Positions 10,803-57,610 of a stretch of DNA of 64,000 nt are shown one piece after another. The notes beneath the pieces were generated by a model. The model was not told the DNA's origin and searched no databases. It saw only the letters and a program-made list of their open reading frames with translations. Every line of letters starts with the position of its first letter. Position 1 is the first letter of the stretch. The stretch spans positions 1,024,001-1,088,000 of the forward strand of contig OY760935.1 of assembly GCA_963664295.1 (NCBI GenBank), written 5' to 3'. This DNA is from Candidatus Altimarinota bacterium. Its GTDB lineage: Bacteria > Patescibacteriota > Gracilibacteria > CAIRYL01 > GCA-016699755. A program made the translations under genes and the position numbers.

Positions 10803-10880
10803 GGCGACTGTAGCTCAGTTGGTTAGAGCGCCGGATTGTGGCTCCGGAGGTCGTGGGTTCGAACCCCATCAGTCGCCCCA
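10803..10880 (+). tRNA. tRNA-His(GTG)
   Basis: G-1, acceptor GCGACTG/CAGTCGC, anticodon arm CCGGA-TTGTGGC-TCCGG, GGTTCGAA T-loop, encoded CCA. Confidence 0.97.
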
Positions 10881-11273
10881 TGAATATCTTTAAACATGTG
10901 CCACAATCAAGATTGCGTCTTCGCGGAGCTAGTGGTTATCTACCCCCATCAGTCGCCCCATGAATATCTTTAAACATGTGCCACAATCAAGATTGCGTCT
11001 TCGCGGAGCTAGTGGTTATCTACCCCCATCAGTCGCCCCATGAATATCTTTAAACATGTGCCACAATCAAGATTGCGTCTTCGCGGAGCTAGTGGTTATC
11101 TACCCCCATCAGTCGCCCCATGAATATCTTTAAACATGTGCCACAATCAAGATTGCGTCTTCGCGGAGCTAGTGGTTATCTACCCCCATCAGTCGCCCCA
11201 TGAATATCTTTAAACATGTGCCACAATCAAGATTGCGTCTTCGCGGAGCTAGTGGTTATCTACCCCCATCAGT
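10864..11273 (+). repeat. Tandem array of identical 80-bp units (5 copies, last truncated), each ending in the 3' 17 nt of tRNA-His
   Basis: AGTCGCCCCA recurs at 10871, 10951, 11031, 11111, 11191; array ends at CAGT 11273. Confidence 0.97.
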
Positions 11274-11342
11274 TTTTTGGCTTGCACAGCTGATTAACAG
11301 CCATTAAACTAAAATGCGTTATATTGTTTTTTAAAAACAAAA

Positions 11343-11741
11343 ATGAACAGCAAATCCCCTAACTTAAGAGTGTTATTAGTTTGCAAACAAGAAGAAGAGG
11401 ATTGCTTAAAAACAGAACAAAAAGAACAAGAAACAATAAACCCAATTGAAAAAATAATTGAACAAACACAAGAAATAATGCGAAGTAATACAAAAAGTTT
11501 TCCGCTTGAAATTGGACTTCATTTACACAAAGCAGGGAATGGTTGTTCTGCACAAGATGAACAAAAAATGTTGGAAGAAATTGTCAAATCTCCAGAAAAT
11601 TTAATTTTAATGACAAGAGCAGTAAAATTATCAGAACCTTGGAAAAGTTTGATGAAAAAAAATGTTTTTATGCTTGATGAACTAAGCCCAGTTCATATTA
11701 TGATTATGATTAAGGGCTATCTTGCCTCCATAAGACTTTAA
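11343..11741 (+). CDS. Hypothetical protein
   Basis: 132-aa ORF; upstream TTGCAC-N17-TAAACT at 11282-11310. Confidence 0.55.
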   Translation: MNSKSPNLRVLLVCKQEEEDCLKTEQKEQETINPIEKIIEQTQEIMRSNTKSFPLEIGLHLHKAGNGCSAQDEQKMLEEIVKSPENLILMTRAVKLSEPWKSLMKKNVFMLDELSPVHIMIMIKGYLASIRL

Positions 11742-11798
11742 TTATTATAAAAAACCTTGCTTTTTTTAATAAAAATAATAAAATAATCAAGCTTGTTT

Positions 11799-11875
11799 GG
11801 TCGTATAGCTCAGCTGGTTAGAGCGCTACACTGATAATGTAGAGGTCCCTGGTTCAAGTCCAGGTACGACCACCA
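11799..11875 (+). tRNA. tRNA-Ile(GAT)
   Basis: Acceptor GGTCGTA/TACGACC, anticodon arm CTACA-CTGATAA-TGTAG, CCA. Confidence 0.97.
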
Positions 11876-11899
11876 GAGATTTTTTGATTTGTTTTTACT

Positions 11900-12006
11900 T
11901 GTCATTCTGAACTTGATTCAGAATCTTTTGGTGACATTATTGTCAGCAATTTATTTTATAGCTTAAATAATGTCCAAGGAGATTGCGGGTCAAGCCCGCA
12001 ATGACA
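11900..12006. repeat. Inverted REP-like palindrome doublet (GTCAT...ATGAC class)
   Basis: TGTCATTCTGAA-CTTGA-TTCAGAATC ... GATTGCGGG-TCAAG-CCCGCAATGACA; complementary loops CTTGA/TCAAG and terminal TGTCATT/AATGACA. Confidence 0.75.
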
Positions 12007-12070
12007 TTTAAATATTATTGTGATTTTATTTTTGGTTTGATATATATAAATTGATTTTTAAAATAAACAT

Positions 12071-12367
12071 ATGGTAAAGATTAAGAATTTAAACAAATTA
12101 GACATGCTGGCTTGTTTTTTAGTTGGACAAAAAAATAGCATAAATGATGCCCCTGAGGAAAAATTTTTAGTTTTAACATATTGGACATCGTGCGCAAATG
12201 TTTCTGTTATTTTTGCAACTATTTTTTCAAGTATGTCTATTGTTTTGTTTATAGAAATAGAAACTAATCTAGTTGTAATTCCTTTTTTTATAGCCTTTAT
12301 ATGGTTTTCTTTGAGGGCTTGGGCATTTGGTAGATGTGCTAAGATTGCATGTAAAATTTGGCTTTAA
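12071..12367 (+). CDS. Hypothetical small membrane protein
   Basis: 98 aa with two hydrophobic segments. Confidence 0.5.
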   Translation: MVKIKNLNKLDMLACFLVGQKNSINDAPEEKFLVLTYWTSCANVSVIFATIFSSMSIVLFIEIETNLVVIPFFIAFIWFSLRAWAFGRCAKIACKIWL

Positions 12368-12383
12368 AAAGCCTCCTAATTTC

Positions 12384-13088
12384 CTACAGCCTACTCTTCA
12401 GCTCCCCTCCCTCAATAGCCTTCCATTTTCCACAACTCATATCACCTTCCCAACAGATTTTTTCAGTTTCACAACTAGGTCCAGCATGAGAAAAAATCTC
12501 AGGACAAGTAGGCTTAACAGCCTCAAGCATTTTTCGTGCAAGCATTTGAATCTCCCATTGCGCACGCACACAAAGCCTTTTTTCAAAAAAGTGCAACAGC
12601 TCACGCGCATTCATAGTGACAACAATGTTTGTTTTTGTGCCCTGTGGGGTCAAAAAACGCGCATCCTCGCTTTTAATTCCTAATTCCTTTAATTCATCCA
12701 CAGTCTCCTGCAAAGAGCTCTTAAATTTATCCACCAGCGCCATTGCTTGTGGGTTATTTTTAATCGAAGGCGGTATGACAAAATTTGTATGAGTTTTGTT
12801 ATAGCGACCTGATTTTATTGAATAGCTTGCCAGCCTGTGGCGCACAAGTTGAGTTTCGGTCACACGAGAAACTCCAGAAATAGAAAAAGTAAAAGTAGCG
12901 TGTTCTATGGTTGATAAATGACCAGAAGAAAGCACAATATTAAGTAATCTTTTTGCTTTATCCTCAGGAATGCTTTCTTGCAATTCTTTTCCGGTTTTTG
13001 GCGAATAACATTGATTAATAGCCGCAGCAATTGTTTGCAAAGGCTTAGAAGTGTGGTCAATTAAATAAACTTCAATTTCTGAGCTCAT
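12384..13088 (-). CDS. thyX: Flavin-dependent thymidylate synthase
   Basis: GH.STIEH, QLVRHRLASYSIKSGRY, EDARF..P, MNAREL.HF...R.C..AQWEI. Confidence 0.96.
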   Translation of the reverse strand: MSSEIEVYLIDHTSKPLQTIAAAINQCYSPKTGKELQESIPEDKAKRLLNIVLSSGHLSTIEHATFTFSISGVSRVTETQLVRHRLASYSIKSGRYNKTHTNFVIPPSIKNNPQAMALVDKFKSSLQETVDELKELGIKSEDARFLTPQGTKTNIVVTMNARELLHFFEKRLCVRAQWEIQMLARKMLEAVKPTCPEIFSHAGPSCETEKICWEGDMSCGKWKAIEGGELKSRL

Positions 13089-13095
13089 ATTTTAT

Positions 13096-13461
13096 TTAAA
13101 CATCAAGGGAATCAATTGCTTCTTGAATTGTTGGGTGATATTCGACCAAATTTAAAAAACCAACAACCTCAAGAATATCTAAAATCGTATCATTACTTTC
13201 AGCTAAAACCATTTTTTTACCATCTTGATTTAGAGTGGAAAAAACCTCAGCCAAAAAACCAACAACCATTGAGTTGATAAACTCCAAATCACGCAAAAAG
13301 AAAATAAAAGTTTTTACATCTTTTGTTTGCAAGTATCTATTTATTTCTTTTTTAAACTCATTGATTGATGACTCATCGACTTCTCCTGCAATATGAATAA
13401 TGCGAACGCCTTCCTTTTCGTTCACTGGTATCATTCTGGATTTAAAATTCACTACAGACAT
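13096..13461 (-). CDS. STAS-domain anti-sigma factor antagonist
   Basis: GEVD, LEFINS..VG.L, ILEVVGF pattern. Confidence 0.8.
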   Translation of the reverse strand: MSVVNFKSRMIPVNEKEGVRIIHIAGEVDESSINEFKKEINRYLQTKDVKTFIFFLRDLEFINSMVVGFLAEVFSTLNQDGKKMVLAESNDTILDILEVVGFLNLVEYHPTIQEAIDSLDV

Positions 13462-13467
13462 TGTTTT

Positions 13468-15300
13468 TTATTTAAAAAATGCTTCAAATTCTTTTTGATC
13501 AAGAGTTTCTTTTTTGAGTAAGGTTTGTGCAATTTTTTCTAGTATTTTTTTATTATCTTTTAATAACTTATCTGCTCTTTTGAGTTGTTCAGAAATTATT
13601 TTATTTATTTCTTTGTCAATTGTTTCGGAATATTTTTCAGAAATTTGTCTTTGGCGTGTGATATCAATACCCAAAAAGCTACCTCCGTCGTCATCATCAA
13701 AAACAATAGGCCCAAGTTCACTCATGCCAAAACGAGTGACCATTCCTCGAGCAATATCAGTTGCTCTTTTAAGGTCATTAGAAACACCTGTACCAGTTTC
13801 GGAAAGCATTAGCTTTTCAGCAGAAAAACCTCCCAATAAAGTGCAAACCTCATCAAGAAATTTTGATTTTGAATAACCAAATTGATCCTCGTCTGGCAAA
13901 CTCCAAGTTGAGCCTAGTGACATACCCCTAGGGATAATTGTCACCTTATGAATTGGGTCAGCATTAGGTAATAAATGACCAATAATTGCATGACCAGCTT
14001 CATGGTAAGCTGTTTTTAATTTTCTATCTTTGCTAATTATTTGTGATTTTCTTTCTGGTCCAATAATTACTTTTTCAGTAGCAAATTCAAGATCTTTTTG
14101 ACCAATAGTTTTTTTATTGTTTTTTGCGGCTTGAATAGCAGCCTCATTTAGAATGTTTGCAAGATCAGCACCAGCAAAGCCAGAGGTCATGCGGGCAATT
14201 TTATCAAAATCAATTTTTGGAGACATTTTTTTGCCCTTGGTATGAACTTTTAAAATTGCTGTGCGGTCTTTTATATCTGGCATGTCGATAACCACCCTTC
14301 TGTCAAAACGACCAGGTCGAAGAAGTGCTTTATCAAGTACATCAGGCCTATTTGTAGCCGCAACTACAATCACATTTGTATTATCTTCAAATCCGTCCAT
14401 TTCAGACAGTATTTGGTTTAGAGTTTGCTCTCTTTCATCATGACCACCAGAATAGCCAGAACCACCTCTTTGGCGACCAACAGCATCAATTTCATCAATA
14501 AAGATAATAGCAGGTGCATTTTTTTTGGCTTTTTCAAATAAATCCCTAACCCTGCTAGCGCCAACGCCAACAAACATTTCTACAAACTCAGAACCGGAAA
14601 TTGAGAAAAAAGGCACTCTGGCTTCACCGGCAACTGCACGAGCCAAGAGAGTTTTTCCTGTTCCTGGGCGACCAATAAGCATAACGCCTCTTGGTATTCT
14701 TGCTCCTATTGTTAGGAATTTTTTAGGATTTTTTAAGAATTCAACAATTTCTTCCAACTCATTTTTTGCTTCTTCTGCTCCCGCAACATCCTTGAAAGTT
14801 GTTTTTTTACCTTTATTCGAAAAAAGCCTGGCTTTTGATTTACCAAAACTAAAAGCATTACCAGCATTTTTTTGCACTTGCCTCATCATAAAAATAATAA
14901 TCACCAGTACAATTGCAAATGGGATAATGTCTCTTAAAAGTGCAAAAATAAAATCACCAGCAGAGGTGTCTAAGATTTCAACAGGAGTTTTTATTTCTGG
15001 ATTTAAAAGCTCAAGATCAGAAGCAGTTTCCAAAGGCTCTTTAAAAGCTATTTTTTGAACATTTTCATCTTTTAAAGTAGCAGTGAGCTGATCACCTTTT
15101 ATTTCAATTTTTTCAAGCTTATTTTCATTATAAAGTTCGGTTATTTCAGAAATAGGAACTTTTTCTGTCTTAATAGCCTCACCAAGAAATTGGTCAGGAT
15201 CCATTGCAACCCACAAAGCAGTTAATACAAAAATTACTGCAATAAAGGTTAACCAAGGGCTTTTGCCAGTGTTTTTCTTTTTATTAGGCTCTTTCATCAT
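13468..15300 (-). CDS. ftsH: ATP-dependent zinc metalloprotease FtsH
   Basis: Two TMs, [18 protein letters not shown] region, HEAGH. Confidence 0.98.
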
Positions 15301-15341
15301 GAAGATTTTCCCAAATAATTATCAGCTTTGCAAGAGAGCTT

Positions 15342-17540
15342 TTAATTATTTGTAGGTTTTTCCCAGCTAGAGTAATCACAATCCGGATAACGCTCACAAC
15401 CCCAAAAAATACGATTTCTTTTTGTTCTTTTTTCAACTACATCGCCTTTTCCGCATTGAGGACACTTAACGCCAATGGTTTTTAAAATTGGTTTTGTATT
15501 TTTACATTTTGGATAAGCAGAACAGGCTAAGAAATTACCAAATCTGCCTTTTTTAACCACCATTTTAGCTCCACATTTTTCACATTTTTCATTAGCAAAT
15601 TCTTTTTCTAGCGCCTCTGTTTCAGCCTTTTCTTCAGGGTCTTCATGAAGAGGTTTTGCGTTTTTACACTCAGGAAAGCCAGTACAAGAAAGAAATTTTC
15701 CATAACGAGAAAGCTTTACCTCCATTGGTTTACCACATTTTTCACATATTTCATCAGTTTTTTCTTTTACAACATCACTTTTTTTAATTTCTTTATCTTT
15801 TTTCTCTATTCTTTCGTGAAAAGGCCAATAAAAATCATTCAAAAATTTTAAATAATCTTTTTTGCCGTGTGCAATTTGGTCTAAATCCTCCTCCATTTTA
15901 GCAGTAAAGTGTAAATCAACTATTTGGTCAAAATGATCCGCAAGTAAGTCAGTGACAACAAAAGCAGTATCTGTTGGAGCTAGGGCTCTGCCGTCTTTTT
16001 GTACATAGCCCCTGCTTTGCACAGTAGAAATTGTTGGAGCATATGTTGATGGTCTACCAATGCCCTCTTCTTCCATTTTTTTAACCAAAGAAGCCTCAGT
16101 ATAACGAGCAGGTGGTTTAGTAAAATGTTGTTTTTTTTCTAATTTTTTAGCCTTTAGTTTTTCATCTTGTTCAAGTTCTGGTAAAAGTTTTTCAAAATCA
16201 CCAGCGGAAACATTTTCCGCTTCTTCGTGATGATCTTCGCCTTCAATATAAAGAGTAAGAAAACCAGGAAAAACAACTCTTTGGCCTGTTGCACGGAACA
16301 TATATGTCTTTTTTTCTCTTACTTCTAGGTCAACACTAGTATTTTTTAATTTTGCTTCTGCCATTTGGCTTGCCACTGTTCTTTTCCAGATTAATTCGTA
16401 TAGCCTAAATTCATCATTTGAAAGCAATTTTTTAATTTTATCTGGAATGGCAGAAATATTTACAGGCCTAATTGCTTCATGAGCTTCTTGAGCACCTTTT
16501 TGTTTTTTTGTATATCTGCGTGTTTTTGAATAGTCAGCACCAAATTGTTTTTTAATTACCTCTTCTGCCTCTTTTAAAGCTCTTTCTGCTAAATTTACAG
16601 AATCAGTTCTCATATAAGTAATCAAACCAGAGTCTTGACCTGCTCCTTCATATAATTTTTGAGCAATTTGCATAGTCTTTTTAACAGAAAAGCCAAGTTT
16701 TCTTGATGCTTCCTGTTGTAGAGTAGATGTTGTAAATGGAGGTGCAGGATTTCTTTTGGTATCTTTTTCTTTAATATTTGCAACAGTAAATTCTTTGCCT
16801 TTTACTGCTTGATAAAGGGCTTCAGCCTCTTCTTTTGAGCTAGGAACAAATTTTTTACCATCTAATTTTTGAAAATTAGCCTGAAATTTGATTTTATTTT
16901 TTTCAAAATCGGCAATCAAAGACCAATATTCTTCTGGCGTAAAAGCTTGAATTTCTCGCTCGCGATCAACAATAAGCTTAACAGCCACACTTTGAACACG
17001 TCCGGCAGAAAGTCCAAAACGGATTTTTTTCCATAAAAGAGGAGAAAGCTCATAACCAACAAGTCTGTCTAATATTCTACGAGCCTGTTGAGATTCAATA
17101 AGGCTTTCGTCAATTTCACGCGGTTCTTTAATTGCTTTTAAAATAGCCTCTTTAGTGATTTCGTGAAACACAATTCTGCGTACAGGATTTGTTTTTTTAG
17201 GTTTTAAAACCTGCAAAAGATGCCACCCAATCGCCTCTCCTTCGCGGTCCTCATCAGTTGCCAACCATAAAGCAGTATCTTTATCAAAATCTTTTTTAAT
17301 TTCTGCTACATGTTTTTTTTGTTTTGGTAAGACTATGTATAGAGGGTCAAAATTGTTTTCTACATCAATGGCCATTGAAGCATAAGGAAGCTTTCTTTTT
17401 GTTGGCGGTAAATCTGCTTTTTTTGTAGGCAGATCGCGCACATGACCATAAGAACTTTTAACTATATAATCTTTTCCTAAAAACTTTTTAAGAATTTTTG
17501 CTTTTGTCGGAGACTCAACGATTACTAAATTTTTTGCCAT
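15342..17540 (-). CDS. topA: DNA topoisomerase I with C-terminal zinc ribbons
   Basis: IVESPTK, ATDEDREGE, SAGRVQS, ITYMRTDS, three C4 zinc-finger repeats. Confidence 0.98.
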   Translation of the reverse strand: MAKNLVIVESPTKAKILKKFLGKDYIVKSSYGHVRDLPTKKADLPPTKRKLPYASMAIDVENNFDPLYIVLPKQKKHVAEIKKDFDKDTALWLATDEDREGEAIGWHLLQVLKPKKTNPVRRIVFHEITKEAILKAIKEPREIDESLIESQQARRILDRLVGYELSPLLWKKIRFGLSAGRVQSVAVKLIVDREREIQAFTPEEYWSLIADFEKNKIKFQANFQKLDGKKFVPSSKEEAEALYQAVKGKEFTVANIKEKDTKRNPAPPFTTSTLQQEASRKLGFSVKKTMQIAQKLYEGAGQDSGLITYMRTDSVNLAERALKEAEEVIKKQFGADYSKTRRYTKKQKGAQEAHEAIRPVNISAIPDKIKKLLSNDEFRLYELIWKRTVASQMAEAKLKNTSVDLEVREKKTYMFRATGQRVVFPGFLTLYIEGEDHHEEAENVSAGDFEKLLPELEQDEKLKAKKLEKKQHFTKPPARYTEASLVKKMEEEGIGRPSTYAPTISTVQSRGYVQKDGRALAPTDTAFVVTDLLADHFDQIVDLHFTAKMEEDLDQIAHGKKDYLKFLNDFYWPFHERIEKKDKEIKKSDVVKEKTDEICEKCGKPMEVKLSRYGKFLSCTGFPECKNAKPLHEDPEEKAETEALEKEFANEKCEKCGAKMVVKKGRFGNFLACSAYPKCKNTKPILKTIGVKCPQCGKGDVVEKRTKRNRIFWGCERYPDCDYSSWEKPTNN

Positions 17541-17830
17541 TCTGAGTAATTTTTAAATTAAAATACTATAAGAGCTTGCAAGAAGTTTTTATATTTTGCA
17601 AATAAAATTTTTTCTGACAAGTGTAAATTTTTATTATTTTGGCTCAAGATAAAGCAAAAATAAGATGCCAAAGATGAAAAAATTTGTCAAAATCATATTA
17701 AAAATAAGAAAATAAGGCTTGTTTTAGCCAGTTTTTAAGCGGTTTTAACGAAGATAAGCCAAAAAACTTGACTTTAATAGTGAAAAACCCCTAACATACT
17801 AACGATTTTTTAATTTTTCCTTCAAAAACT

Positions 17831-18106
17831 ATGACAAAAGGAGATCTTGTTAACGCAATTGCCGCTGGCGCTGGTGTTACAAAAAAAGCTGCTGGAGATG
17901 CTCTTCAGGCTATGATTGACTCTGTAACAAAAGAGCTAAAAAAAGGTGATAGTGTTACAATTACTGGTTTTGGAACTTTTCGTGTTTCAAAACGTGCTGC
18001 TCGCACTGGTGTTAACCCAAGAAACCCAAGCGAAAAAATTAAGATCCCAGCAATGAAACTTCCAACTTTCAAAGCTGGTAAAGCTCTTAAAAACGCTGTT
18101 CGCTAA
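17831..18106 (+). CDS. hup: HU family DNA-binding protein
   Basis: GFGTF..SKRAARTGVNP, P.FKAGKALK. Confidence 0.97.
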   Translation: MTKGDLVNAIAAGAGVTKKAAGDALQAMIDSVTKELKKGDSVTITGFGTFRVSKRAARTGVNPRNPSEKIKIPAMKLPTFKAGKALKNAVR

Positions 18107-18151
18107 ACAGTGTTTTTAAAAAGTGTTTAATTTTTTAATAAAGCACTATGT

Positions 18152-18179
18152 GCCCCCCTGTTAAAAGGGGGGCTTTTTT
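18152..18179 (+). terminator. Intrinsic terminator after HU gene
   Basis: GCCCCCCT-GTTAAA-AGGGGGGC-TTTTTT. Confidence 0.85.
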
Positions 18180-18234
18180 GTTGCAATTTTTTATAAAAAA
18201 ACTATAATCCTATACTTTTTGTTGTTGGTCCCCC

Positions 18235-23018: not shown

Positions 23019-23031
23019 TTTTTCATTTAAC

Positions 23032-43757: not shown

Positions 43758-44146
43758 AGAGCGGGATGCTTATTTTTTCGGAGCTTTGCTCCTCAAAAAC
43801 AAGGCCTTCTGCGCTCGCTCGGAATTTTGCACAAGCGCAAATTCTCTCGCTCGCTTGAGTGTCGAACCCGAGGCTTCTTATCAAGCCACTTCTTTGCCAT
43901 TATTAAAAATTTTGCCCCCATCAGGGCAAACTTTTTAATGGCGGAGAGAGCGGGATGCTTATTTTTTCGGAGCTTTGCTCCTCAAAAACAAGGCCTTCTG
44001 CGCTCGCTCGGAATTTTGCACAAGCGCAAATTCTCTCGCTCGCTTGAGTGTCGAACCCGAGGCTTCGTATCAAGCCACTTCTTTGCCATTATTAAAAATT
44101 TTGCCCCCATCAGGGCAAACTTTTTAATGGCGGAGAGAGCGGGATT
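43758..44146 (-). repeat. Two 189-bp RtT-like units downstream of tRNA-Ser, each carrying a split copy of the tRNA T-arm/3' end
   Basis: TGGCGGAGAGAGCGGGAT at 43939 and 44128; partial end at 43758; units nearly identical. Confidence 0.92.
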
Positions 44147-44220
44147 CGAACCCGCGGATCCGGTATAACCGAATCAACACATTAGCAGTGTGCCGCTTTC
44201 GACCACTCAGCCATCTCTCC
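44128..44220 (-). tRNA. tRNA-Ser(GCT)
   Basis: Reverse complement GGAGAGATGGCTGAGTGG...GCACA-CTGCTAA-TGTGT, long variable arm, GGTTCGAATCC, CCA. Confidence 0.97.
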
Positions 44221-44248
44221 GTAATATTATGTTGTTAATGTTTCATCT

Positions 44249-44383
44249 GCACACTGCTTGTTGCGTGTGCCCCTATCTAGATACACTCAGCCATCTCTCC
44301 GTACTTTGTAAAAATATTAATGTTCTGTTCGGCACACTGCTTGTTGCGTGTGCCCCTATCTAGATACACTCAGCCATCTCTCC
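44249..44383 (-). repeat. Two identical 52-bp repeats upstream of tRNA-Ser containing the tRNA 5' 17 nt, separated by divergent 28-31 bp spacers
   Basis: GCACACTGCTTGTTGCGTGTGCCCCTATCTAGATACACTCAGCCATCTCTCC at 44249-44300 and 44332-44383. Confidence 0.92.
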
Positions 44384-50054: not shown

Positions 50055-50149
50055 AATTTTATTTTAACAATTTTTTATCTCGTCTGTTAATCTTAACTTT
50101 GATTATTTTATTTTTTTTTGCCAAAATAGGCAGGCATTTTTAAAACCTA

Positions 50150-51535
50150 ATGTCATTGTATATTTACAACACATCTTCAAAAGACAAAGAAGAGTTTAAG
50201 CCTATTGATAATAATGAAGTAAAAATTTATTCTTGTGGGCCTACTGTCTATAATGTGCCACATATTGGCAATTTGCGTGCCTTTGTCTTTGCAGATAGCC
50301 TTTATCGCTGGTTGAAATATGGCGAAAAATATGAAACTAAATGGGTAATGAATATTACTGATGTTGACGATAAAACCATTCGTGATTCTCAAAAAGAATA
50401 TCCAGAATTATCCGCAGAAGAAGCTTTAAAAAAATTTACTCGCAAATACGAAGACGCTTTTTTTGCAGATTTAGAAAAAATTAACATAAAAAAAGACTCT
50501 TTTATAGAAAATCCTAGGGCAACAGAATATATAAAAGCCATGCAAGACCTTACAAAAGATATTTATGAACAAGGTTTTGCAAAAATTGTTGATGGGTCTG
50601 TGTTTTTTGATGTTAAAAAATACACAGAAAGTAATAAATATGGTGTTTTGCTTAATCTTAATTTAGATAATTTAAAATCTGGCACACGCACACTTGCAGA
50701 CGAAATTGAAAAAGAAAATGTACAGGATTTCGCACTTTGGAAAGGAAAAAAAGAGGGTGAGCCATGTTGGGATTTTGAATTAGACGGACAAAGTTTGCCA
50801 GGAAGACCTGGTTGGCATATTGAATGTTCTGCTATGAGCTCTGTCTTGCTTGGTTTGCCTTTTGATATTCATACTGGTGGAATTGATCTTGTTTTTCCTC
50901 ACCATGAGAATGAAATTGCACAAGCACAAGCAGGTTGGAATAAAAAAACTGCTAATTTTTGGGTACATAATGAGCACCTGATGGTTGAAGGTAAAAAAAT
51001 GTCTAAATCATTGGGTAATTTTTATGTTTTACAAGATTTAATAGATAAAGGAGTTGACCCCGAAGTAATTCGTTTCTTTTTTATTAGCAATCACTACCGA
51101 GCAAAAATAAATTTATCTGAAGATTCTTTGCAAAATGCTGAAAACACTCTTCAAAAAATTAGAAATCAACTAGCCATTAAAGAAGGCGGTTCAATGTCTA
51201 CTGAAGAAAAAAAGCAGGAATTTTATCAAGCTATGCAAGATGACTTAAATACTCCTGTTGCTTTTTCTGTTCTTTTTGAGCTTTTGAAAGGTGATTATAA
51301 AAAAGATGAAGTTGAAGACTTTTTTAAATTTGCTGAAAAAGTTTTTGGTGTGAGATTTTTGCCAAAAAACGAACAAATTCCAGAAAAAATTCAAAAAATA
51401 GCCCAAGATCGCTGGCAAGCGAAAAAAGATAAAAATTTTGAACTTGCTGATGATTTAAGAAAAAAAGCCCTTGAAGAAGGTTATGAAATCAGGGATACTG
51501 CTGACTCTTATGAAATACTGCCCTTAAAGCAATGA
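50150..51535 (+). CDS. cysS: Cysteine--tRNA ligase
   Basis: CGPTVY, HIGN, GRPGWHIECSAM, FPHHENE, KMSKS. Confidence 0.98.
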   Translation: MSLYIYNTSSKDKEEFKPIDNNEVKIYSCGPTVYNVPHIGNLRAFVFADSLYRWLKYGEKYETKWVMNITDVDDKTIRDSQKEYPELSAEEALKKFTRKYEDAFFADLEKINIKKDSFIENPRATEYIKAMQDLTKDIYEQGFAKIVDGSVFFDVKKYTESNKYGVLLNLNLDNLKSGTRTLADEIEKENVQDFALWKGKKEGEPCWDFELDGQSLPGRPGWHIECSAMSSVLLGLPFDIHTGGIDLVFPHHENEIAQAQAGWNKKTANFWVHNEHLMVEGKKMSKSLGNFYVLQDLIDKGVDPEVIRFFFISNHYRAKINLSEDSLQNAENTLQKIRNQLAIKEGGSMSTEEKKQEFYQAMQDDLNTPVAFSVLFELLKGDYKKDEVEDFFKFAEKVFGVRFLPKNEQIPEKIQKIAQDRWQAKKDKNFELADDLRKKALEEGYEIRDTADSYEILPLKQ

Positions 51536-52455
51536 GATATAAATTATTGAAACTTTTGCCGAAAATTATTATTACCATTATTTTTTTTGGTGCGATTATT
51601 TTTTCGTTACTTTTTTCCAAGGGTATTAGATTTGACTCCGACAGTGGTCAATTTATTCAAACAGGAATATTAGAAGTTTCCTCTGCGCCAAAAGGTGCGA
51701 TTATTTTTTTAGACAATAAATACATAGATACAACGCCTACTTTTATAAGGAGTGTGCCTTTGCAAAATATCACCGTAAGATTGGAAAAAAGCGGTTATTA
51801 TCATTGGCAAAAAGTAGTTAAAATTAGTGAGGATACAGTAATTCGCCTTAAAGACATACCACTTGCACCAAAAGATAATAAAAAAATAAAAAAATTAGCA
51901 TCAAAAGAAAAAGTCTTAGTTGATCCACTAAAAAAAGGCCTTGTTATTGTTTATGATGATCTTAATGTTATCAATATTATTAATTTTTCTGACCCAGAAG
52001 ATGAAATAGTATTTTTTAATGAAGATATTGGTAATATTTCTTTCACAGACTATGGAGAATTGATTATTAATGGCAAAAGAACAGGAAATACGAATATTTT
52101 TAGTAAAATAAAAAACGAACCAAGGCCAGTAGAGCAGGAAAAAAGCAGAATTTCCTATAAAGGTGAATATCTTCTTTTTATTAGAGATAAATCTTTATGG
52201 AAATACAACACAACAACAGAAGAAAGTGTTTTAATTAAAGAGTTTTCTGAGCTTATAGATGGTGCGTTTTGGTTTCAAGATAGTTTCTCTATTGTTGTTG
52301 CCCTAAAAAACAAAATATTGCTCATAGATCATGATGGAGAAAATGAAAGGATTTTGTTTCAAAAAGAACCAGGAGAAAATATTTACTTTAGCTTAGACAT
52401 GAAAGAGCTTTTTTGGTTAAATAATGATTATTGGTATAAATATAGTTTTGAGTAA
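51532..52455 (+). CDS. PEGA-domain membrane protein
   Basis: N-terminal TM, TG.L.VSS.P.GA.IFLD...TTP...EKSGY..W. Confidence 0.8.
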   Translation: MRYKLLKLLPKIIITIIFFGAIIFSLLFSKGIRFDSDSGQFIQTGILEVSSAPKGAIIFLDNKYIDTTPTFIRSVPLQNITVRLEKSGYYHWQKVVKISEDTVIRLKDIPLAPKDNKKIKKLASKEKVLVDPLKKGLVIVYDDLNVINIINFSDPEDEIVFFNEDIGNISFTDYGELIINGKRTGNTNIFSKIKNEPRPVEQEKSRISYKGEYLLFIRDKSLWKYNTTTEESVLIKEFSELIDGAFWFQDSFSIVVALKNKILLIDHDGENERILFQKEPGENIYFSLDMKELFWLNNDYWYKYSFE

Positions 52456-52668
52456 TAGAAATATTCTTATAAAATAAAAAATTTATTTGACAAGAAAAAA
52501 AGTTTATCTTTAAAACAAAAAATAAATTAACGCAAGACGAAATAGTGAAACAAATTTGTGTCATATGCGTTTAAAATTGCGACTACTTAGCCAAAAAAAT
52601 CGCTTAATAAGCCAAAATATAAAAAAGTAAAAAAAGACAAATCAATCAGAAACAGCCAATTAAGGCGT

Positions 52669-52696
52669 TTGACAGTGTATATATATCAATTAGAAT
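52669..52696 (+). promoter_or_regulatory. Putative sigma-70 promoter of the S-layer gene (about 300-nt leader)
   Basis: TTGACA-N16-TAGAAT. Confidence 0.5.
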
Positions 52697-52998
52697 AGCG
52701 ATAAATAGGCAAAAACTATAAATTATTGAGAATTAACGCTTTCAAGAAATAATCTTGAAATGCGGTCAGATAAAAATATGCCCTTTAAAAATCAGGCAAA
52801 AAAGAAACAAAGAATATAATAATTGAGAGGTTAGATAATTATATCCTTATATATATAATTATTTTTTGCGAGGACATAGAAGTAAATAACTCCTTTTCGG
52901 TCTACCGACATTATATTAGTAATGATCGGTTGTTCCTATATACACAGAGCTTTTCGCTCTAAAACAAAATTTTTATTAAAATTTTATCTTTTTAACTT

Positions 52999-55900
52999 AT
53001 GGAAACTCTTAAAAGATTCCTTGCGAGTTTCTCAGCTATTGCACTTCTACTTTCAGTAGCAGTACTTCCAGCTTCGGCTGCGACGTTTTCTGATATTGAA
53101 GGTCACTGGAGTGAAGAATTCGTTGAGACACTTGTGGACGAAGGTTTGGTTTCAACAGACCATGAAAACTATCGTCCAGATGATTATCTTAACCGTGCAG
53201 AGTTAGCCAAGCTAGTAGTTGAAGCAAATGACGGCATCATTCCTGGTGTTACAGAAGCTCCAACTTTCTCAGACGTGGCAAAAGATGCATGGTACTACGA
53301 TTATGTTGAAACAGCATATGCTCTTGGCATTGTTGGTGGTTACGGTGACGGGACTTTTGGTCCACAAGACAACGTAACACGTGAACAAGCTGTTAAAATG
53401 ATCGTGGAAGGTCTTTCAGTTCCTACTGATTTAGACCCAGCAGAACAATTCCCTGATGTTTCATCAAGCGATTGGTCTGTTGACTACATTACAACAGCTG
53501 TTAATCAATGTATAGTTGGTGGTTATGCTAATGGTAATTTTGGTCCACAAGATTTAGTTACTCGTGGTCAAGTTGCAAAAATGTTAGCAAAAGCTATGGA
53601 CTACGGTTGTGATGCAGACGACGCTGGTGATGACGCTGGTGACGACGACGACGCTGGTGATGACGCTGGTGACGACGACGATGCTGATGTAACTCCTGTT
53701 AGCGAAGGTACAGTTGAGGTTAGCCTTTCTGCTGATAATCCAGCAGGTCAAACTGTTCCAAACAATGGTACAAATGTTCCTTACCTTGTACTAGACTTTA
53801 CAGCTGGTAATGGTGAAGACGTTGAAGTTACAAACTTGACTATTTCTATTGCTGGTCTTGGTAACGAGAACAACTATAATGAGGTTAAAGTTTTTGATGG
53901 TTTTGACCAACTTGGTTCTGGTAGAAGCTTCTCAAGTGCTACTAATCAAGCTGCTTTAAACCTAACAACTGATCCAATTAAAGTTGAATCTGGTACTACA
54001 AAAACAATTGTAGTTGCTGCCGACATGGCTGCTGCTACAGTGGCTGGTACTGAAAACTATTTCTCAGTTGACTCAGTTGAAAGTGTTATGGCTTTTGGTG
54101 CTGAAACAGGTGGCGAAGTTGAAGTAGCCGGTGATTTCCCACTAAGAGGTAACATTATGACAATTGGTAGCGTTCCGGTTGGTGCTCTTGACTTCACAGA
54201 AAAGACAACAAGCGATACTAATGCTGATATTGGTGAAGAACAAGTGCAGGTTTCACGCTTCGAAATTGCAGCTGACGGTGCTGAAGATATATTAGTTAAA
54301 GCTATTACTTTTAAACAAGTTGGAACTGCTGATACTGATGAGATTGCTAATGTTTCTCTTTGGTATGGTGATACTCAACTTGGTGAAACAGCTGAAACAG
54401 TTGGCGCTGGCGATAAAGTGACAATCGACCTTACAGGTATGGCTGATGGCGGTTGGATTCTTGAAGACGGCACAGCAAGAACTCTTTGGGTAAAATGTGA
54501 CATCATTAAAGGTGTTGGTAAAAATATCACTTTTGAAATTGATGAGCCATCAGAAGATGTTATTGCTGAAGGCTTAACTTACGGCTTTAACGTTGGTATG
54601 GGTGATTGGTGTAAAGGTGCAGGTGGCACTACATCTGCTGGTGCTGGTTGTGCTGGTGTTAATGCTACTGCTGTTGATATTAATGGTGGTACACTTAACT
54701 TCGCATTTACATCAACTGCTCGTGATGTTGCTCCTGATACAGGTGATATAGAATTTGGTGTTCTTACAATTGAAAACGCAGGTGAACCTGTGACAATTAA
54801 AACACTTGATCTTATTCTTGATCCAACTGCTGGTGTTGGTACAGCTAATAACAACAAAATTACAGATGTAAAACTTGTTGACGCTGATACAGGACAAACA
54901 GTTTCTGGTCCAGAAGATCCAGCAGCTTCTGCTATTGCTGCAGCTACTACATTCGGTGATGATTTCTTCATTGATAGTGGTGAATCTTTAACTCTTCAAT
55001 TGTTAGCTGATGTTGAAAACACAGCTGCAACTGGTGAAAAATACAGCTTTGCTCTTGATATGAGCACTATTGAATACAAAGGTGAAACATCTGGTGATGA
55101 CTTTACTTGTCTTGCTGGTGGTGATGACGACTGTAAACCAACAGCTGATCCAGACACAAAAGATTACACAATTGCTCAGCCTACTGTAACTTTCAGTCAA
55201 AAAACAATTGCTGGTCAGATTTATGTATCTAAAGCTGAACAAATTGTTCTTTGGGAAGGTACAGCAAAAGCTAATGATGCTGAAGATGTAAAAATTACAG
55301 AACTTGTGTTCACAGAAACAACAGGTTGTTCTGGTGCTGCTTGTAATGGTAATGGTCATACAGACAACATTGAAAACCTTGCTATCTACACAAAGAAAGG
55401 TAGTTCAACTACTCTTCAAGAAAGTGGTGTAAGCATGGGAGCTTTGACTGGTCCTAATACTACTCCTACTAACACTACATCAACCGTTACATTTACAGAG
55501 CTTGATGAAGATGGATCAAGTGGTATTGCTCTTTCAGCTGGTGAAGAAGTTACAATTATCTTGAAAGGTAATGTTGCTTCAACAATAGTTCACCAAGATA
55601 GTGGTACTGGTACTCCAACTGCAACATTTAGTATCAACCCAGCTGGTGGTGATGCTTCAGCAGAAAACCTAGAAGGTACTGCTGCTACAGTTGTTGGTGG
55701 TTTACTAACTGCAACAGCTCAAACTCTTGCAAACTCAGGTTCTCTAACAGTTGAACTAAACACAGATACTCCAGATGCTCAACTTCTTGTTGCTGGCACA
55801 GAAAATGTAGAAATTGCTACATTTGACTTTGATGCTGACGATGAAGATGCTGACATCGAAGATCTTACTGTTGAATTCACACCAGCCGGTGCTGCAAACC

Positions 55901-57207
55901 AAGTTAATACATTAGTTCCTGGTGGAACTATTGAAGCTGCTGATACATTCACAGTTAAAATCACTAATGATGACGCTGCTCTTACTAACAACACAATAAC
56001 AGTTACTGGTAATGCTACAGCTGCTCTTACAGCTGCTGCTCTTACAGCTGCTATCAATGCTGATCCAACACTTTCTGGTTTTGTGACAGCTGCTACAGTT
56101 GGTGGTACTACAACTACTGTAACCGCTAACACTGCTGGTACAGCCTTCACTCTTGAAGCTAGTGCTACAGACGGTGGTGCAGACACTACTCAAAGAATTA
56201 ACAATGTTAAAACAACAGCTAATGTACCTGCTACATCAACAAATGCTATTGATTCAGTAGCTCTATTCTATGATGATGGTACTCCAGTGTTGAAAAACAA
56301 TGGTAGCGCTGCTACAACAGCAGACATCACAGCTAATCTAGCTGAATTAACTGGTCTTGACCTTGTTATCGATAAAGATAATGCATCAGACACAGTTATT
56401 GGTGTTTATGTAACATTGAACGACATTTCAGATACTGATATTGCACGCAGTAACATGCAATTCTCAGCTAACCTATCATTTGGTGCTGGTGAATATGATA
56501 TCACTGGTTTCTCATCAGGTACTGACTACGTTGCAGTAACTGTAGATGGAACAGGAACCAACACTGATGTTGGTAATACAATGTATGTATTTGCTAACAA
56601 AGTTGTTGCTAGTGAAACTCTTAACTCAAGTGGTAATCCAGAAGCTGATACTCTATTATCTGATGGTTGGAAAAATGCTGCTAAAATCACTCTTACAAGA
56701 GGCTCTAAAAATGCATATTTGAAAGAACTTTCAGTAGACATTAACCAATCTATTGGTGCTGCTTCTTCATATGGTGTTTGTGAGCTAAGACTTAAAAACG
56801 GTAGTGGTGACCTCATCGCTTCTATTGATGCTGGTGCTGCTGCTCCATTATCTGGTACACAAACTTTCACAGTTGGTACTTGTGCTACTGGTACTTGTGC
56901 GCAATCTGATCTTGTTAATCTTCGCGATGTAATTTCTGAAGATGAAGTTTACACTGTTGAAGCTGACGTTGAAGGTTTGGACTTAGTTAACACTAACCCT
57001 GCTGCTGTTTGTGACGGTAGTGCTACTATATTTGATGACAATGACAAATTAGAATTTGAAATTGCTATCAACGGTAATACTCCAAACACAGCTGATGATT
57101 ATATTAAATGGGAAGATTATGGTACAAACGGTAAAGATGGTGCTGAGATCAAATGGATTGATCTTGGTAACAGTACTGTACAGAAAATCTCTAATACTCT
57201 TCAATAA
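52999..57207 (+). CDS. Major S-layer protein (three N-terminal SLH repeats)
   Basis: Signal peptide, SLH x3, Asp-rich linker, acidic Thr/Ala/Gly-rich beta body, strong GGT/GCT codon bias, long leader and strong terminator. Confidence 0.88.
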   Translation: METLKRFLASFSAIALLLSVAVLPASAATFSDIEGHWSEEFVETLVDEGLVSTDHENYRPDDYLNRAELAKLVVEANDGIIPGVTEAPTFSDVAKDAWYYDYVETAYALGIVGGYGDGTFGPQDNVTREQAVKMIVEGLSVPTDLDPAEQFPDVSSSDWSVDYITTAVNQCIVGGYANGNFGPQDLVTRGQVAKMLAKAMDYGCDADDAGDDAGDDDDAGDDAGDDDDADVTPVSEGTVEVSLSADNPAGQTVPNNGTNVPYLVLDFTAGNGEDVEVTNLTISIAGLGNENNYNEVKVFDGFDQLGSGRSFSSATNQAALNLTTDPIKVESGTTKTIVVAADMAAATVAGTENYFSVDSVESVMAFGAETGGEVEVAGDFPLRGNIMTIGSVPVGALDFTEKTTSDTNADIGEEQVQVSRFEIAADGAEDILVKAITFKQVGTADTDEIANVSLWYGDTQLGETAETVGAGDKVTIDLTGMADGGWILEDGTARTLWVKCDIIKGVGKNITFEIDEPSEDVIAEGLTYGFNVGMGDWCKGAGGTTSAGAGCAGVNATAVDINGGTLNFAFTSTARDVAPDTGDIEFGVLTIENAGEPVTIKTLDLILDPTAGVGTANNNKITDVKLVDADTGQTVSGPEDPAASAIAAATTFGDDFFIDSGESLTLQLLADVENTAATGEKYSFALDMSTIEYKGETSGDDFTCLAGGDDDCKPTADPDTKDYTIAQPTVTFSQKTIAGQIYVSKAEQIVLWEGTAKANDAEDVKITELVFTETTGCSGAACNGNGHTDNIENLAIYTKKGSSTTLQESGVSMGALTGPNTTPTNTTSTVTFTELDEDGSSGIALSAGEEVTIILKGNVASTIVHQDSGTGTPTATFSINPAGGDASAENLEGTAATVVGGLLTATAQTLANSGSLTVELNTDTPDAQLLVAGTENVEIATFDFDADDEDADIEDLTVEFTPAGAANQVNTLVPGGTIEAADTFTVKITNDDAALTNNTITVTGNATAALTAAALTAAINADPTLSGFVTAATVGGTTTTVTANTAGTAFTLEASATDGGADTTQRINNVKTTANVPATSTNAIDSVALFYDDGTPVLKNNGSAATTADITANLAELTGLDLVIDKDNASDTVIGVYVTLNDISDTDIARSNMQFSANLSFGAGEYDITGFSSGTDYVAVTVDGTGTNTDVGNTMYVFANKVVASETLNSSGNPEADTLLSDGWKNAAKITLTRGSKNAYLKELSVDINQSIGAASSYGVCELRLKNGSGDLIASIDAGAAAPLSGTQTFTVGTCATGTCAQSDLVNLRDVISEDEVYTVEADVEGLDLVNTNPAAVCDGSATIFDDNDKLEFEIAINGNTPNTADDYIKWEDYGTNGKDGAEIKWIDLGNSTVQKISNTLQ
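53617..53682 (+). repeat. Approximately 30-bp in-frame tandem repeat encoding the DDAGDDAGDD linker
   Basis: GACGACGCTGGTGATGACGCTGGTGACGAC occurs twice in tandem. Confidence 0.8.
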
Positions 57208-57227
57208 TAAGTTTTATACTTAGAAAT

Positions 57228-57261
57228 AAAAAAAAGCCCTCCTAAACTGGAGGGCTTTTTT
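57228..57261 (+). terminator. Intrinsic terminator after the S-layer gene
   Basis: AAAAAGCCCTCC-TAAACT-GGAGGGCTTTTTT. Confidence 0.9.
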
Positions 57262-57349
57262 GTTGTGTAAATTTTTAAGTAATTTTTTCTTTAAAATTGA
57301 CTTGATATAAATTATATGCGATTATGTCCGGGCAATTTTTGAACAATAT

Positions 57350-57424
57350 TGCCCGGTAGCCAAGCGGTAAGGCAGGGGACTTTGAATCCTCCATGCGTAG
57401 GTTCGAATCCTACCCGGGCAGCCA
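57350..57424 (+). tRNA. tRNA-Gln(TTG)
   Basis: Acceptor TGCCCGG/CCGGGCA, anticodon loop CTTTGAA, GGTTCGAATCC, CCA. Confidence 0.96.
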
Positions 57425-57434
57425 TTTAAAAACA

Positions 57435-57459
57435 GTTGTCACAAAGTGACAATTTTTTT
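57435..57459 (+). terminator. Terminator-like hairpin after tRNA-Gln
   Basis: TTGTCAC-AAA-GTGACAA-TTTTTTT. Confidence 0.7.
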
Positions 57460-57466
57460 AAATTAT

Positions 57467-57610
57467 TGTTTAGGTAGGACCGAGAACCTGGTTCGACAGC
57501 TAGGAGCCCGAGTGCAAGTGTATGCTTGCATTAAGCTTGCCGAGGGCGACGACGATGCCTTATTTTGCGAGGTGAAACCGAGCAAAATGAGCATCCTACC
57601 CGGGCAGCCA
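57467..57610 (+). repeat. RtT-like element ending in a duplicate of the tRNA-Gln 3' 18 nt
   Basis: ATCCTACCCGGGCAGCCA at 57407 and 57593 (period 186); GGTTCGA at 57490 followed by a 96-nt structured insert. Confidence 0.88.

Follow-up and report, generated by a model that had tools for sequence, protein, structure and literature searches.

Previous work has shown that tRNA genes of Escherichia coli can be followed by tRNA-linked repeats (TLRs), such as the 178-bp repeats of tyrT-tyrV (RtT RNA, RF00391), which lie behind the tRNA in tandem, end in an 18–19-nt copy of its terminus, and are transcribed and processed (PMC8144298). TLRs may stand immediately after an rRNA gene as well as a tRNA gene. 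Other described systems are partly similar to the repeats analyzed here. REP/BIME elements are non-autonomous, palindromic, single-stranded-DNA elements thought to be spread in trans by RAYT (HUH) proteins; and the Ssn nucleases (GIY-YIG, cd10448), with their NTS/SRM repeats, combine a small stand-alone gene with dispersed hairpin repeats and have single-stranded DNA as their substrate (PMC11893778). SRMs differ in not being derived from tRNA, and "tRNA" occurs 0 times in the main text of that paper. Genomic islands that target tRNA genes are bounded by a terminal direct tRNA repeat starting in a loop, and can stack at one gene. Here, we compare these systems with the repeats in a 64,000-nt stretch (the window) of the 1.2-Mb genome of a Candidatus Altimarinota bacterium (G000), and with the tRNA flanks of the whole genome (Table 1).

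Table 1. Positions of tRNA genes and associated repeats in the window
Feature	Positions	Strand
tRNA-His(GTG), intact	10804..10880	+
Type A 3′ array of 80-bp units, four complete and a fifth truncated to 73 bp	10881..11273	+
Inverted copy of tRNA-His nt 31–39 (9 nt), unit 1; recurs every 80 bp	10900..10908	+
12-nt scaffold word common to the His unit and the second 3′ unit of tRNA-Met	10921..10932	+
Unit 1: 17 nt repeated in direct orientation from the tRNA-His 3′ end	10944..10960	+
tRNA-Ile(GAT), intact, without tRNA-derived unit	11799..11875	+
Inverted pair of dispersed Ssn/SRM-type palindromic repeats, outside the tRNA-linked family	11900..12006	.
Type B unit 2 behind tRNA-Ser(GCT), terminal copy truncated	43758..43938	-
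Type B unit 1 behind tRNA-Ser(GCT), 189 bp, RNA fold z = −4.3	43939..44127	-
tRNA-Ser(GCT), intact	44128..44220	-
Proximal type A 5′ mirror unit (80 bp; p = 0.006)	44221..44300	-
Distal type A 5′ mirror unit (83 bp) with inverted nt 26–37	44301..44383	-
tRNA-Gln(TTG), intact	57350..57424	+
Single type B unit behind tRNA-Gln(TTG), 186 bp	57425..57610	+

The units that lie behind tRNA-Ser and tRNA-Gln, termed type B in a first-pass annotation of this DNA, are of the RtT kind. In the first Ser unit, a hairpin spacer is followed by a degenerate inverted copy of the T-arm, GGTTCGA, a 94-nt core, and an 18-nt copy of the tRNA 3′ end. The Gln unit runs from a C(AAA)G hairpin spacer through an inverted T-arm copy and a 95-nt core to an 18-nt 3′-end copy; in the fold, its inverted arm is base-paired to the 3′ copy and NCCA remains free, and the unit scores z = −6.4 as RNA and −4.2 as DNA. 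The annotated size of 186–189 bp and the insert of about 95 nt that splits the T-loop between GGTTCGA and ATCC are borne out at both loci; the inverted T-arm copy had been missed. Type B was said to be common to Ser and Gln, which is true of the layout, but Gln has one unit rather than a tandem array, and its core is unlike that of Ser. A core of 68–105 nt is instead 93–100% identical at three Ser loci and at Gly, Arg and Gln(CTG) loci, and every complete unit terminates with 17–22 nt that match its own tRNA perfectly, in agreement with the earlier view of locus-specific tRNA parts on a common scaffold. Judging from these alignments, the type B scaffold appears to have moved recently between these six tRNA loci, which serve four amino acids. 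A trailer is common to Gln(CTG) and Gln(TTG), whose cores differ, 3′ repeats often run on into the tRNA trailer, and the Arg unit contains a variant of the GIY-YIG cassette palindrome described below.

Type B units align colinearly with RtT of E. coli, Citrobacter and Marinobacter, as the RtT-like layout assigned to them had implied. In the E. coli DNA we find the inverted T-arm with an altered T-loop, the GGTTCGA/core/ATCC split, and colinear core modules. A 23-position pattern built from E. coli and G000 recovers 110 GTDB loci, in 89 of which a tRNA lies upstream in the same orientation, and the altered T-loop word of the inverted arm is the same across phyla. In a set of 23 (non-independent) RtT-type units drawn from relatives and gammaproteobacteria, 6.4 of the 11 variable positions of the inverted arm fit the unit's own tRNA and 4.4 fit other tRNAs; the own fit is the better one in 18 of the 23. 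The 3′-end copy found directly behind the gene in TLRs is 18 nt long in type B and 17 nt at His; in the 5′ units of Ser, the 5′ end is copied instead. Type B has both the TLR architecture and the core, whereas type A shares the grammar and not the core. Relative to E. coli TLRs, the units here are AT-richer in the core, fall into several unrelated core families, include breaks in the anticodon and D-loops as well as 5′ mirror units, and affect about half of the tRNA genes. The RF00391 model gives no match in the window, at 20 G000 loci (E ≤ 5) or in the whole genome; control loci of E. coli, Citrobacter and Marinobacter match at 47–137 bits. In RNA runs, only 0.05 of words were present. Membership in the C4 antisense RNA family (RF01695) was rejected, with 0 matches in G000 and one match, lacking a nearby tRNA, in a control genome.

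Type A comprises the array behind tRNA-His and the units on the 5′ side of tRNA-Ser. Each His unit repeats the 3′ half of the tRNA in degenerate form, in the order inverted nt 31–39, sense anticodon-arm piece, scaffold, altered T-loop and, in complete units, perfect nt 61–77 (17 nt). The units are 100% identical to one another, and the inverted match to tRNA-His ranks 1 of 37. The 12-nt scaffold word has five matches at His, one at Met (G000:419197) and none elsewhere in the genome, and a 3′ array is absent from all 29 tRNA-His loci of relatives (0/29). In this genome, 5′ units take in some genomic leader sequence from before the mature 5′ terminus, and they lack CCA. Both 5′ Ser units begin with tRNA nt 1–17 and contain inverted anticodon-arm copies of 10–12 nt; in the proximal unit, nt 1–17 is followed by a D-loop replacement, a sense anticodon-stem piece, and inverted nt 28–37. 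The 80-bp periodicity and 17-nt terminal duplication attributed to type A are thus present at both genes (80 and 83 bp at Ser). The proposed hairpin holds up in part: inverted copies of the anticodon region are present, but relative to shuffles the His unit alone shows no gain in folding (z = +1.36, compared with −1.2 and −2.9 for the units 5′ of Ser), and at Ser the inverted arm stands second in sense orientation, nearest the gene, not first. TATCTA is not a signature (28 near tRNAs versus 21.6 expected, 700 in the genome), and apart from it we saw no sequence common to the His and Ser 5′ units. Nor is type A supported as a system of its own, since it follows the same sense/insert/sense/inverted grammar, applied to the anticodon arm or mirrored on the 5′ side, and 5′ mirror units also occur in other phyla.

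It had been claimed that every tRNA gene in the window is decorated. This is correct for His, Ser and Gln and incorrect for Ile, where the repeat taken for a tRNA-linked unit is devoid of tRNA-derived sequence and is one of a dispersed family of palindromes, one related form of which is present in 40 copies. At G000:622.6 kb, a 95-aa GIY-YIG gene has a related repeat at its flank, and judged by repeat shape, this gene and the Ile-side repeat look like an Ssn-like system. In that family a GTCATT-palindrome repeat accompanies the small GIY-YIG gene at 622.6 kb; none flanking such a gene was seen at the His, Ser and Gln units, which were accordingly rejected as Ssn/SRM. Read support is available for the Ser locus, which is tiled by Logan contigs of the probable source sample and whose junctions are covered by contigs of two studies. 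One contig from an independent study spans 44003–44233 with 0 substitutions and 3 gaps, and another carries a variant Ser 5′ hairpin that still pairs.

Across the genome, 23 of 74 tRNA flanks, at 19 of 37 genes, are decorated, meaning that they carry a copy of their own tRNA's end. Within the 200-nt reach of the search, the other 18 genes have no such copy; among them, tRNA-Pro has an inverted piece only, with a GIY-YIG cassette further upstream. On the 3′ side the order is gene, spacer, inverted arm, loop, sense piece, insert, and a perfect 17–22-nt end; the 5′ side is its mirror image. The tRNA copies are broken at the D-, anticodon- or T-loop, many units are stacked or truncated, terminal copies range overall from 17 to 37 nt, and inverted arms range from perfect over 16–17 nt to degenerate. 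Occurrence is patchy: two relatives, one of them a complete genome of the same family, have 0/80 and 5/70 decorated flanks, respectively. When a tRNA was ranked among 34–37 tRNAs, excluding those for the same amino acid, it was the best inverted match in 11/23 decorated flanks versus 1/51 others (Fisher p = 3e-6), so the inverted matches are not random. In the remaining 12 decorated flanks the own tRNA is not top-ranked, so that insertion does not create a new inverted arm each time. The suggestion that the local tRNA serves as template fits the terminal copy, but does not always apply to the inverted arm.

The hairpins of these units have unusual loops. Of the 29 distinct hairpins (stem of at least 5) in 18 decorated 3′ flanks, six have the loop C(GNA)G and seven C(AAA)G, a total of 13, compared to a mean of 0.13 and a maximum of 2 in shuffles; GNRA or UUCG loops are found in 0/29. 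The same triloops account for 1/57 hairpins in the other 19 tRNA trailers and 2/866 behind 840 ORFs. They lie on the tRNA-sense strand. Among 115 RtT-type cores there are 186 instances of C(GNA)G, with N varying, and 0 of its reverse complement. The bias is weaker in CPR hallmark units (10 versus 2 reverse-complement, stem of at least 4), and four E. coli tyrT units have only 3 C(GNA)G versus 1 GNRA. GNA mini-hairpins are far more stable as DNA than as RNA (PMC13037366). GNA is the only mini-hairpin former named in that review, a point against the seven AAA loops, although C(AAA)G is probably stable as a DNA mini-hairpin too. Together with the lack of GNRA and UUCG loops, these triloops point to single-stranded DNA, and the units likely act as selfish single-stranded-DNA elements. 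The 5′ mirror units, being without CCA, also fit a DNA-level process. Wobble asymmetry in the inverted arms is 17 versus 11 (p = 0.34).

What might move such elements? A trans-acting machine of nuclease, HUH or reverse transcriptase type had been proposed. The latter two are not supported, with 0 matches to Y1_Tnp (PF01797) in the complete genome and 0 to the one RT profile used, RVT_1 (PF00078), in a genome rated 100% complete; this leads us to reject REP/RAYT membership and a retroelement, respectively. Units here also differ from REP/BIME in being tied to tRNA loops and in having locus-specific arms. IS110 and resolvase likewise have 0 matches in the genome. The sole tyrosine recombinase (a single PF00589 match) is Xer-like and lies ~25 kb from the nearest tRNA, and no integrase was found inside or beside a duplicated tRNA fragment, so we reject an integrase-borne genomic island; unlike islands, moreover, the units have no cargo, contain inverted arms, and place one core at many tRNAs. 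This leaves a nuclease as the best candidate of those named. At tRNA-Pro of the same genome, an 82-aa GIY-YIG gene sits inside a loop-broken 321-bp tandem repeat that holds tRNA nt 1–29, a palindrome, and nt 43–56. Its product is only ~35% identical to the Ssn-like GIY-YIG protein, and the solved relatives found were UPF0213 proteins only; a related GIY-YIG family cuts single-stranded DNA hairpins site-specifically (PMC11893778).

Such cassettes, found at tRNA-Pro elsewhere in the genome and in relatives, keep close company with tRNAs: 31/33 loci of close homologs lie ≤150 nt from a tRNA on the same strand, and gene-less units and cassettes occur at the same tRNA at four loci (L061, L062, L400, L420). 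Close homologs are present in 10/17 genomes with the RtT hallmark versus 69/283 without, an association that spans kin and fragmented MAGs and leaves 7/17 hallmark genomes without a close homolog; within one family the figures are 9/13 versus 7/27. A homolog lies within 1.5 kb at only 1/25 hallmark loci, however, and within 600 nt at only 4/44 loci with the 5′ Ser duplication. The cassette palindrome occurs in only 3/25 hallmark units versus 2/29 control trailers, and the window units are loop-broken tRNA copies without a GIY-YIG gene. Because most cassettes lack an inverted arm (one match of at least 10 nt among 31 tRNA-adjacent cassette loci), they may be a sister system rather than the driver. 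On the sequence data at hand, the GIY-YIG nuclease is possibly the driver that spreads the units.

The reading we prefer, to which we give somewhat less than an even chance, is that these are gene-less repeats of the TLR/RtT kind, made of loop-broken tRNA copies often closed by an inverted copy, that act as single-stranded DNA and are spread in trans by a GIY-YIG nuclease. A tRNA gene or unit would fold when single-stranded and be nicked at a loop. Repair would then copy the scaffold from another locus via the near-universal loop sequence before returning to the local tRNA, which would account for the perfect local terminal copy. The inverted arm would come with the scaffold, and ordinary quasi-palindrome template switching or compensatory change would later retune it to the tRNA at hand. 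Near-identical tandem arrays could then arise when the terminal direct repeats slip or recombine unequally.

It is also conceivable, if unlikely, that the units are functional RNAs (co-transcribed, CCA-ended tRNA-like small RNAs, or precursor-pairing controls of processing) whose scaffold is spread by gene conversion. The folds of type B, the free NCCA of Gln, the processing of TLR transcripts in E. coli (PMC8144298), the Ser 5′ hairpin of a related strain that pairs despite different letters, and wobble-type changes that favour the sense strand at RtT loci (34 to 12, non-independent) are all consistent with this idea. Yet the loops are of the DNA type, many units are truncated or stacked, and occurrence is patchy even among relatives; furthermore, CCA-ended mimics or anticodon shields, roles suggested at first, cannot explain 5′ units that have no CCA. 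We give about the same low weight to an origin without any dedicated protein, in which replicative template switching at hairpin-rich tRNA genes produces direct-inverted-direct duplications that slippage and gene conversion amplify and homogenise. The layout is that of a small-scale inverted triplication, no transposase or RT was found, and template switching is known to perfect inverted repeats (PMC7202029, PMC8794818), in keeping with arms that range from perfect to degenerate. Left unexplained are a non-tRNA scaffold that is conserved between this lineage and E. coli, an altered T-loop word that recurs unchanged across phyla, strand-biased triloops, and the disparity of 23/74 versus 0/80 between relatives.

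Units that start after CCA, end in a T-loop-to-CCA copy and stack like islands could also be attachment-site scars or minimal islands, in which tRNA-targeting tyrosine integrases, whose crossovers typically fall in tRNA loops, leave displaced 3′ fragments with element ends. We regard this as improbable: near-identical cores sit at tRNAs for four amino acids, and in each case the 3′ end is that of the local tRNA, so that an excised circle would bring the wrong end; the only recombinase in the genome is Xer-like; and a viral scan gave 7 matches, 2 of them ordinary E. coli-type TLRs. A reverse transcriptase that copies the tRNA itself is very improbable. A tRNA-primed enzyme would stop at about position 58/59, where several terminal copies of 17–18 nt do stop, but RVT_1 is absent, copies extend to 37 nt, and leader bases in 5′ units and trailer in 3′ repeats indicate that the template is DNA or precursor. 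Least credible of all is an assembly artefact. The identity of the His units, whose copy number comes from the assembly alone, could be so explained, and the copy number may be wrong; the anatomy would be unaffected, as the scaffold recurs at other loci and in other phyla and the Ser junctions are present in contigs of two studies.

To the systems described before, the present analysis adds the triloop signature and the mirror variants, and it connects RtT-like units with GIY-YIG cassettes. A wider and considerably more doubtful generalization of our preferred reading is that TLRs, from E. coli RtT to those of Patescibacteria type, are non-autonomous single-stranded-DNA elements that target the cloverleaf, with a mini GIY-YIG nuclease nicking the loops and the inverted arm acting as a retargetable guide or shield in cis. 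If true, this would define a nuclease-driven family of elements programmed by base pairing with the tRNA gene that hosts them, and would answer the question of where TLRs come from.

The genome that contains the window is a single contig of 1.215 Mb, with 33.5% GC, 37 tRNA genes and a tmRNA. Its size, its gene content and the small genomes of its relatives point to a Patescibacteria lineage. We compared each of its 74 tRNA flanks (200 nt) with the adjacent tRNA, ranking inverted matches among 34–37 tRNAs. A sense copy of the own tRNA lies in 23 of these flanks, termed decorated, at 19 genes. The first-pass annotation, which placed the repeats at His, Ser and Gln correctly, held that every tRNA gene is decorated; this extends to units at 19 genes genome-wide but fails for the rest, where 200-nt flanks hold no such copy. 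It also suggested that the units are templated by the local tRNA. In line with this, the best inverted match is to the own gene in 11/23 decorated flanks versus 1/51 others (p=3e-6), the single positive among the latter being a truncated unit at Pro; in the other 12 decorated flanks, though, the own tRNA is not top-ranked. Two complete relatives have 0/80 and 5/70 decorated flanks (40 and 35 tRNAs taken in), and a 3′ array is present at 0/29 tRNA-His loci of relatives, which makes this genome an extreme case.

The units follow one common grammar. On the 3′ side, the gene is followed by a hairpin spacer, an inverted tRNA piece (the inverted arm), a short loop, a sense piece, an insert and a perfect copy of the tRNA end, 17–22 nt in length, or 35–37 nt at Glu and Phe. 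In 5′ units this order is mirrored, and the inverted arm is closest to the gene. Break points fall mostly inside or beside the D-loop, anticodon loop or T-loop. Types A and B, proposed as two repeat kinds, do differ in which arm is mirrored, but they share this grammar. As had been suggested, the scaffold is shared and the tRNA part locus-specific: the type B core (68–105 nt) is 93–100% identical across three Ser loci, Gly, Arg and Gln(CTG), and the terminal copy is always local. Because the core is common to these six loci, a tRNA-Met unit repeats the His scaffold, and Gln(TTG) in the window has the trailer of Gln(CTG) with a different core, we conclude that scaffolds move between loci, leaving the terminal copy local. 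The inverted arm probably travels with the scaffold and is then adjusted to the local tRNA. One known way for this is set out in parts of PMC7202029 and PMC8794818: imperfect inverted repeats can serve each other as templates by template switching. Hairpin modules of 65–155 nt are likewise common to Leu(GAG), Met and Thr(GGT), to the Ser(GGA) unit, tmRNA and the Lys unit, and to the Gly, Phe and Lys units, and are also seen at 845465; they begin directly after the CCA end, without a tRNA-specific piece, and one follows a non-tRNA CCA.

Several details of the annotation needed correction. The tandem array at Gln is a single unit, the hairpin ascribed to the His unit does not fold by the unit alone (z=+1.36), and what follows tRNA-Ile is a palindromic repeat of a dispersed kind that has no relation to tRNA. 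TATCTA was rejected as a signature motif, occurring near tRNAs 28 times against 21.6 expected. An alternative fold of tRNA-His and its first unit with its own CCA end was no better than shuffles (z=-1.7 as RNA, -2.05 as DNA). Elsewhere in the genome, 16S and 23S rRNA motifs lie at about 569.7 kb (-) and 1135–1137 kb (+), far apart and on opposite strands, and by these motif matches the two genes appear unlinked.

Type B units are very probably of the same kind as the tRNA-linked repeats (TLR/RtT) of E. coli. The tyrT-tyrV repeats also contain an inverted copy of the T-arm, are split at the same point and have the same start of the core, and the modules align one by one, upholding the RtT layout already proposed. 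A search pattern written from E. coli units and those of this genome, run on GTDB, returned 110 loci, mostly enterobacterial, with a tRNA upstream at 89 (Pro, Tyr, Ser, Val). The Rfam RtT model matched E. coli-type control loci and nothing in this genome. A shorter RtT-type pattern, the hallmark, occurs in 17/301 genomes of the class behind many tRNA types (reversed control, 0); it has no exact match to this genome's own units and therefore samples a sister set. Among 23 hallmark/RtT-type units, which are not independent, the inverted arm is closer to the own tRNA than to others in 18. The exact type B 23-mer has no match in GTDB, and a looser core pattern has six in this genome and none in 400 others of the phylum. 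In metagenomes, a 17-mer matched 47 times; we read these as chance, since none is near a tRNA. Viral contigs gave seven matches, two being E. coli-type TLRs and five lacking a tRNA or the layout. C4 antisense RNA, a candidate for the units' family, was rejected after a search that gave no match in this genome.

In passages of PMC8144298, TLRs are defined by 18–19 nt of terminal identity, with no mention of an inverted arm; although first described in 1978, they had no known function as of 2021. The work consulted handles them as RNAs. No rtT passage occurs in PMC10542128 (version 3), and PMC2864571 is silent on TLRs. In the literature searched, nothing describes the inverted arm, 5′ mirror units or a tRNA-GIY-YIG link; older TLR work may describe the inverted arm. 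In several enterobacterial genomes (L110, L112, L152, L166, L189), a degenerate tRNA-Tyr copy from the 5′ end carries an RtT core in its T-loop, and in most the start of another tRNA-Tyr gene comes next. At tRNA-Ser(GGA) (L207/L135), a head-to-head unit consists of a perfect inverted and a direct copy of the tRNA 3′ end, which differ in the hairpin inserted at their T-loops.

GTDB has 5′ duplications of tRNA-Ser at 44 loci, spread over many phyla, of which 40 were testable and four were dropped for lack of a Ser tRNA. Among 28 from other taxa, none has an inverted anticodon-arm copy of at least 8 nt; the anticodon mirror is therefore observed in no genome besides this one and its related strain. 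When the search was widened to nt 8–50, an inverted copy was found in 9/40 (p<=0.01), always over the D-arm. In Christensenella and other Clostridia (L356-L396) and at L399, mirror units lie 5′ of tRNA-Ser, and their inverted copy of the D-arm is some 20 nt away from the gene. In the probable source sample, contigs tile the window's Ser locus. An independent seawater study provides a 228-nt contig over 44003–44233, with 0 substitutions and 3 gaps, as well as a variant Ser 5′ hairpin in which pairing is kept.

Do the units act as DNA or as RNA? Type B folds well as either, and loop types discriminate between the two where folding does not. In decorated 3′ flanks, 13/29 hairpins carry, on the tRNA-sense strand, a triloop of the form C(GNA)G (6) or C(AAA)G (7); the reverse-complement triloop appears in one of the 29, and GNRA or UUCG in none. 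Comparison sets gave 0.13 (shuffles), 1/57 (undecorated trailers) and 2/866 (ORF ends). We take C(AAA)G to be a DNA-type triloop. Across 115 RtT-type cores, which are related, C(GNA)G occurs 186 times versus 0 for its reverse complement. The triloop signal is less pronounced in CPR hallmark units and in the four E. coli tyrT units. According to parts of PMC13037366 and PMC3201870, the GNA mini-hairpin is a motif of DNA and is weaker when made of RNA. A wobble test of the folded strand showed no significant bias (17 versus 11, p=0.34). A DNA-level mode of action is the likely reading.

What might drive such units is harder to say. No mobile-element protein was found among 45 window ORFs scanned, which include housekeeping genes; genome searches for Y1_Tnp, RVT_1, IS110 and resolvase found none, and the sole tyrosine recombinase is Xer-like. 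Our best guess, a tentative one, is a small GIY-YIG protein encoded beside a loop-broken tRNA copy, an arrangement we call a cassette. At tRNA-Pro(TGG), each repeat holds tRNA-Pro nt 1–29, a palindrome, nt 43–56 and the gene. The GIY-YIG motif residues look intact by eye, and a search for relatives of solved structure found UPF0213 proteins only. A same-strand tRNA is present within 150 nt at 31 of the 33 close-homolog loci, the remaining two being cut off by a contig edge, and 29/31 have an own-tRNA copy by script count. Cassettes and gene-less units, with and without the inverted arm, occur at the same tRNAs at four loci (L061, L062, L400, L420). Close homologs are present in 10/17 hallmark-positive versus 69/283 other genomes, and within one family in 9/13 versus 7/27, kin in both comparisons not being independent. 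Against a driver role, cassettes mostly lack the inverted arm, and a GIY-YIG gene is nearby at only 1/25 hallmark loci and 4/44 of the 5′ loci.

Coordinates of features in the source genome (G000, contig C1) and in the window
Feature	Coordinates	Description
tRNA-Pro(TGG) cassette (L013)	G000:C1:482683-483373	Upstream of tRNA-Pro; 321-bp tandem repeat with two identical 82-aa GIY-YIG genes
95-aa GIY-YIG gene (L025)	G000:C1:622400-622900	SRM-like palindromes on its flanks
Lys(CTT) stack	G000:C1:135310-136190	At least 5 stacked modules, including a D-loop-broken unit with inverted nt 17-28 copy, long multi-hairpin insert and near-complete 3′ tRNA copy
Orphan piece of Gly(TCC) 3′ unit	G000:C1:540367-540466	93% over 101 nt; nearest tRNA 5 kb off
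Terminator-like hairpin	window 1600-1630	Centred on 15-bp palindrome also in the tRNA-Pro GIY-YIG cassette
132-aa ORF	window 11343-11741	Between His array and tRNA-Ile; no match in Pfam or NCBIfam

A palindrome form related to the tRNA-Ile repeat has 40 copies in the genome, many in tandem arrays, and flanks the 95-aa GIY-YIG gene. This family and gene resemble the Ssn nuclease and its repeats (SRM), as presented in parts of PMC11893778, and together look like an Ssn system.

This one small genome has about 20 decorated tRNA genes, units broken at each of the three loops and on either side of the gene, a strand-specific signature of DNA-type triloops and a single candidate enzyme of 82 aa; with these, the TLR puzzle becomes biochemically testable, and cheaply so. 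If the reading is true, RtT-type repeats, so far ‘sRNA of unknown function’, would count as mobile ssDNA, and small site-specific ssDNA nucleases would gain one more class.
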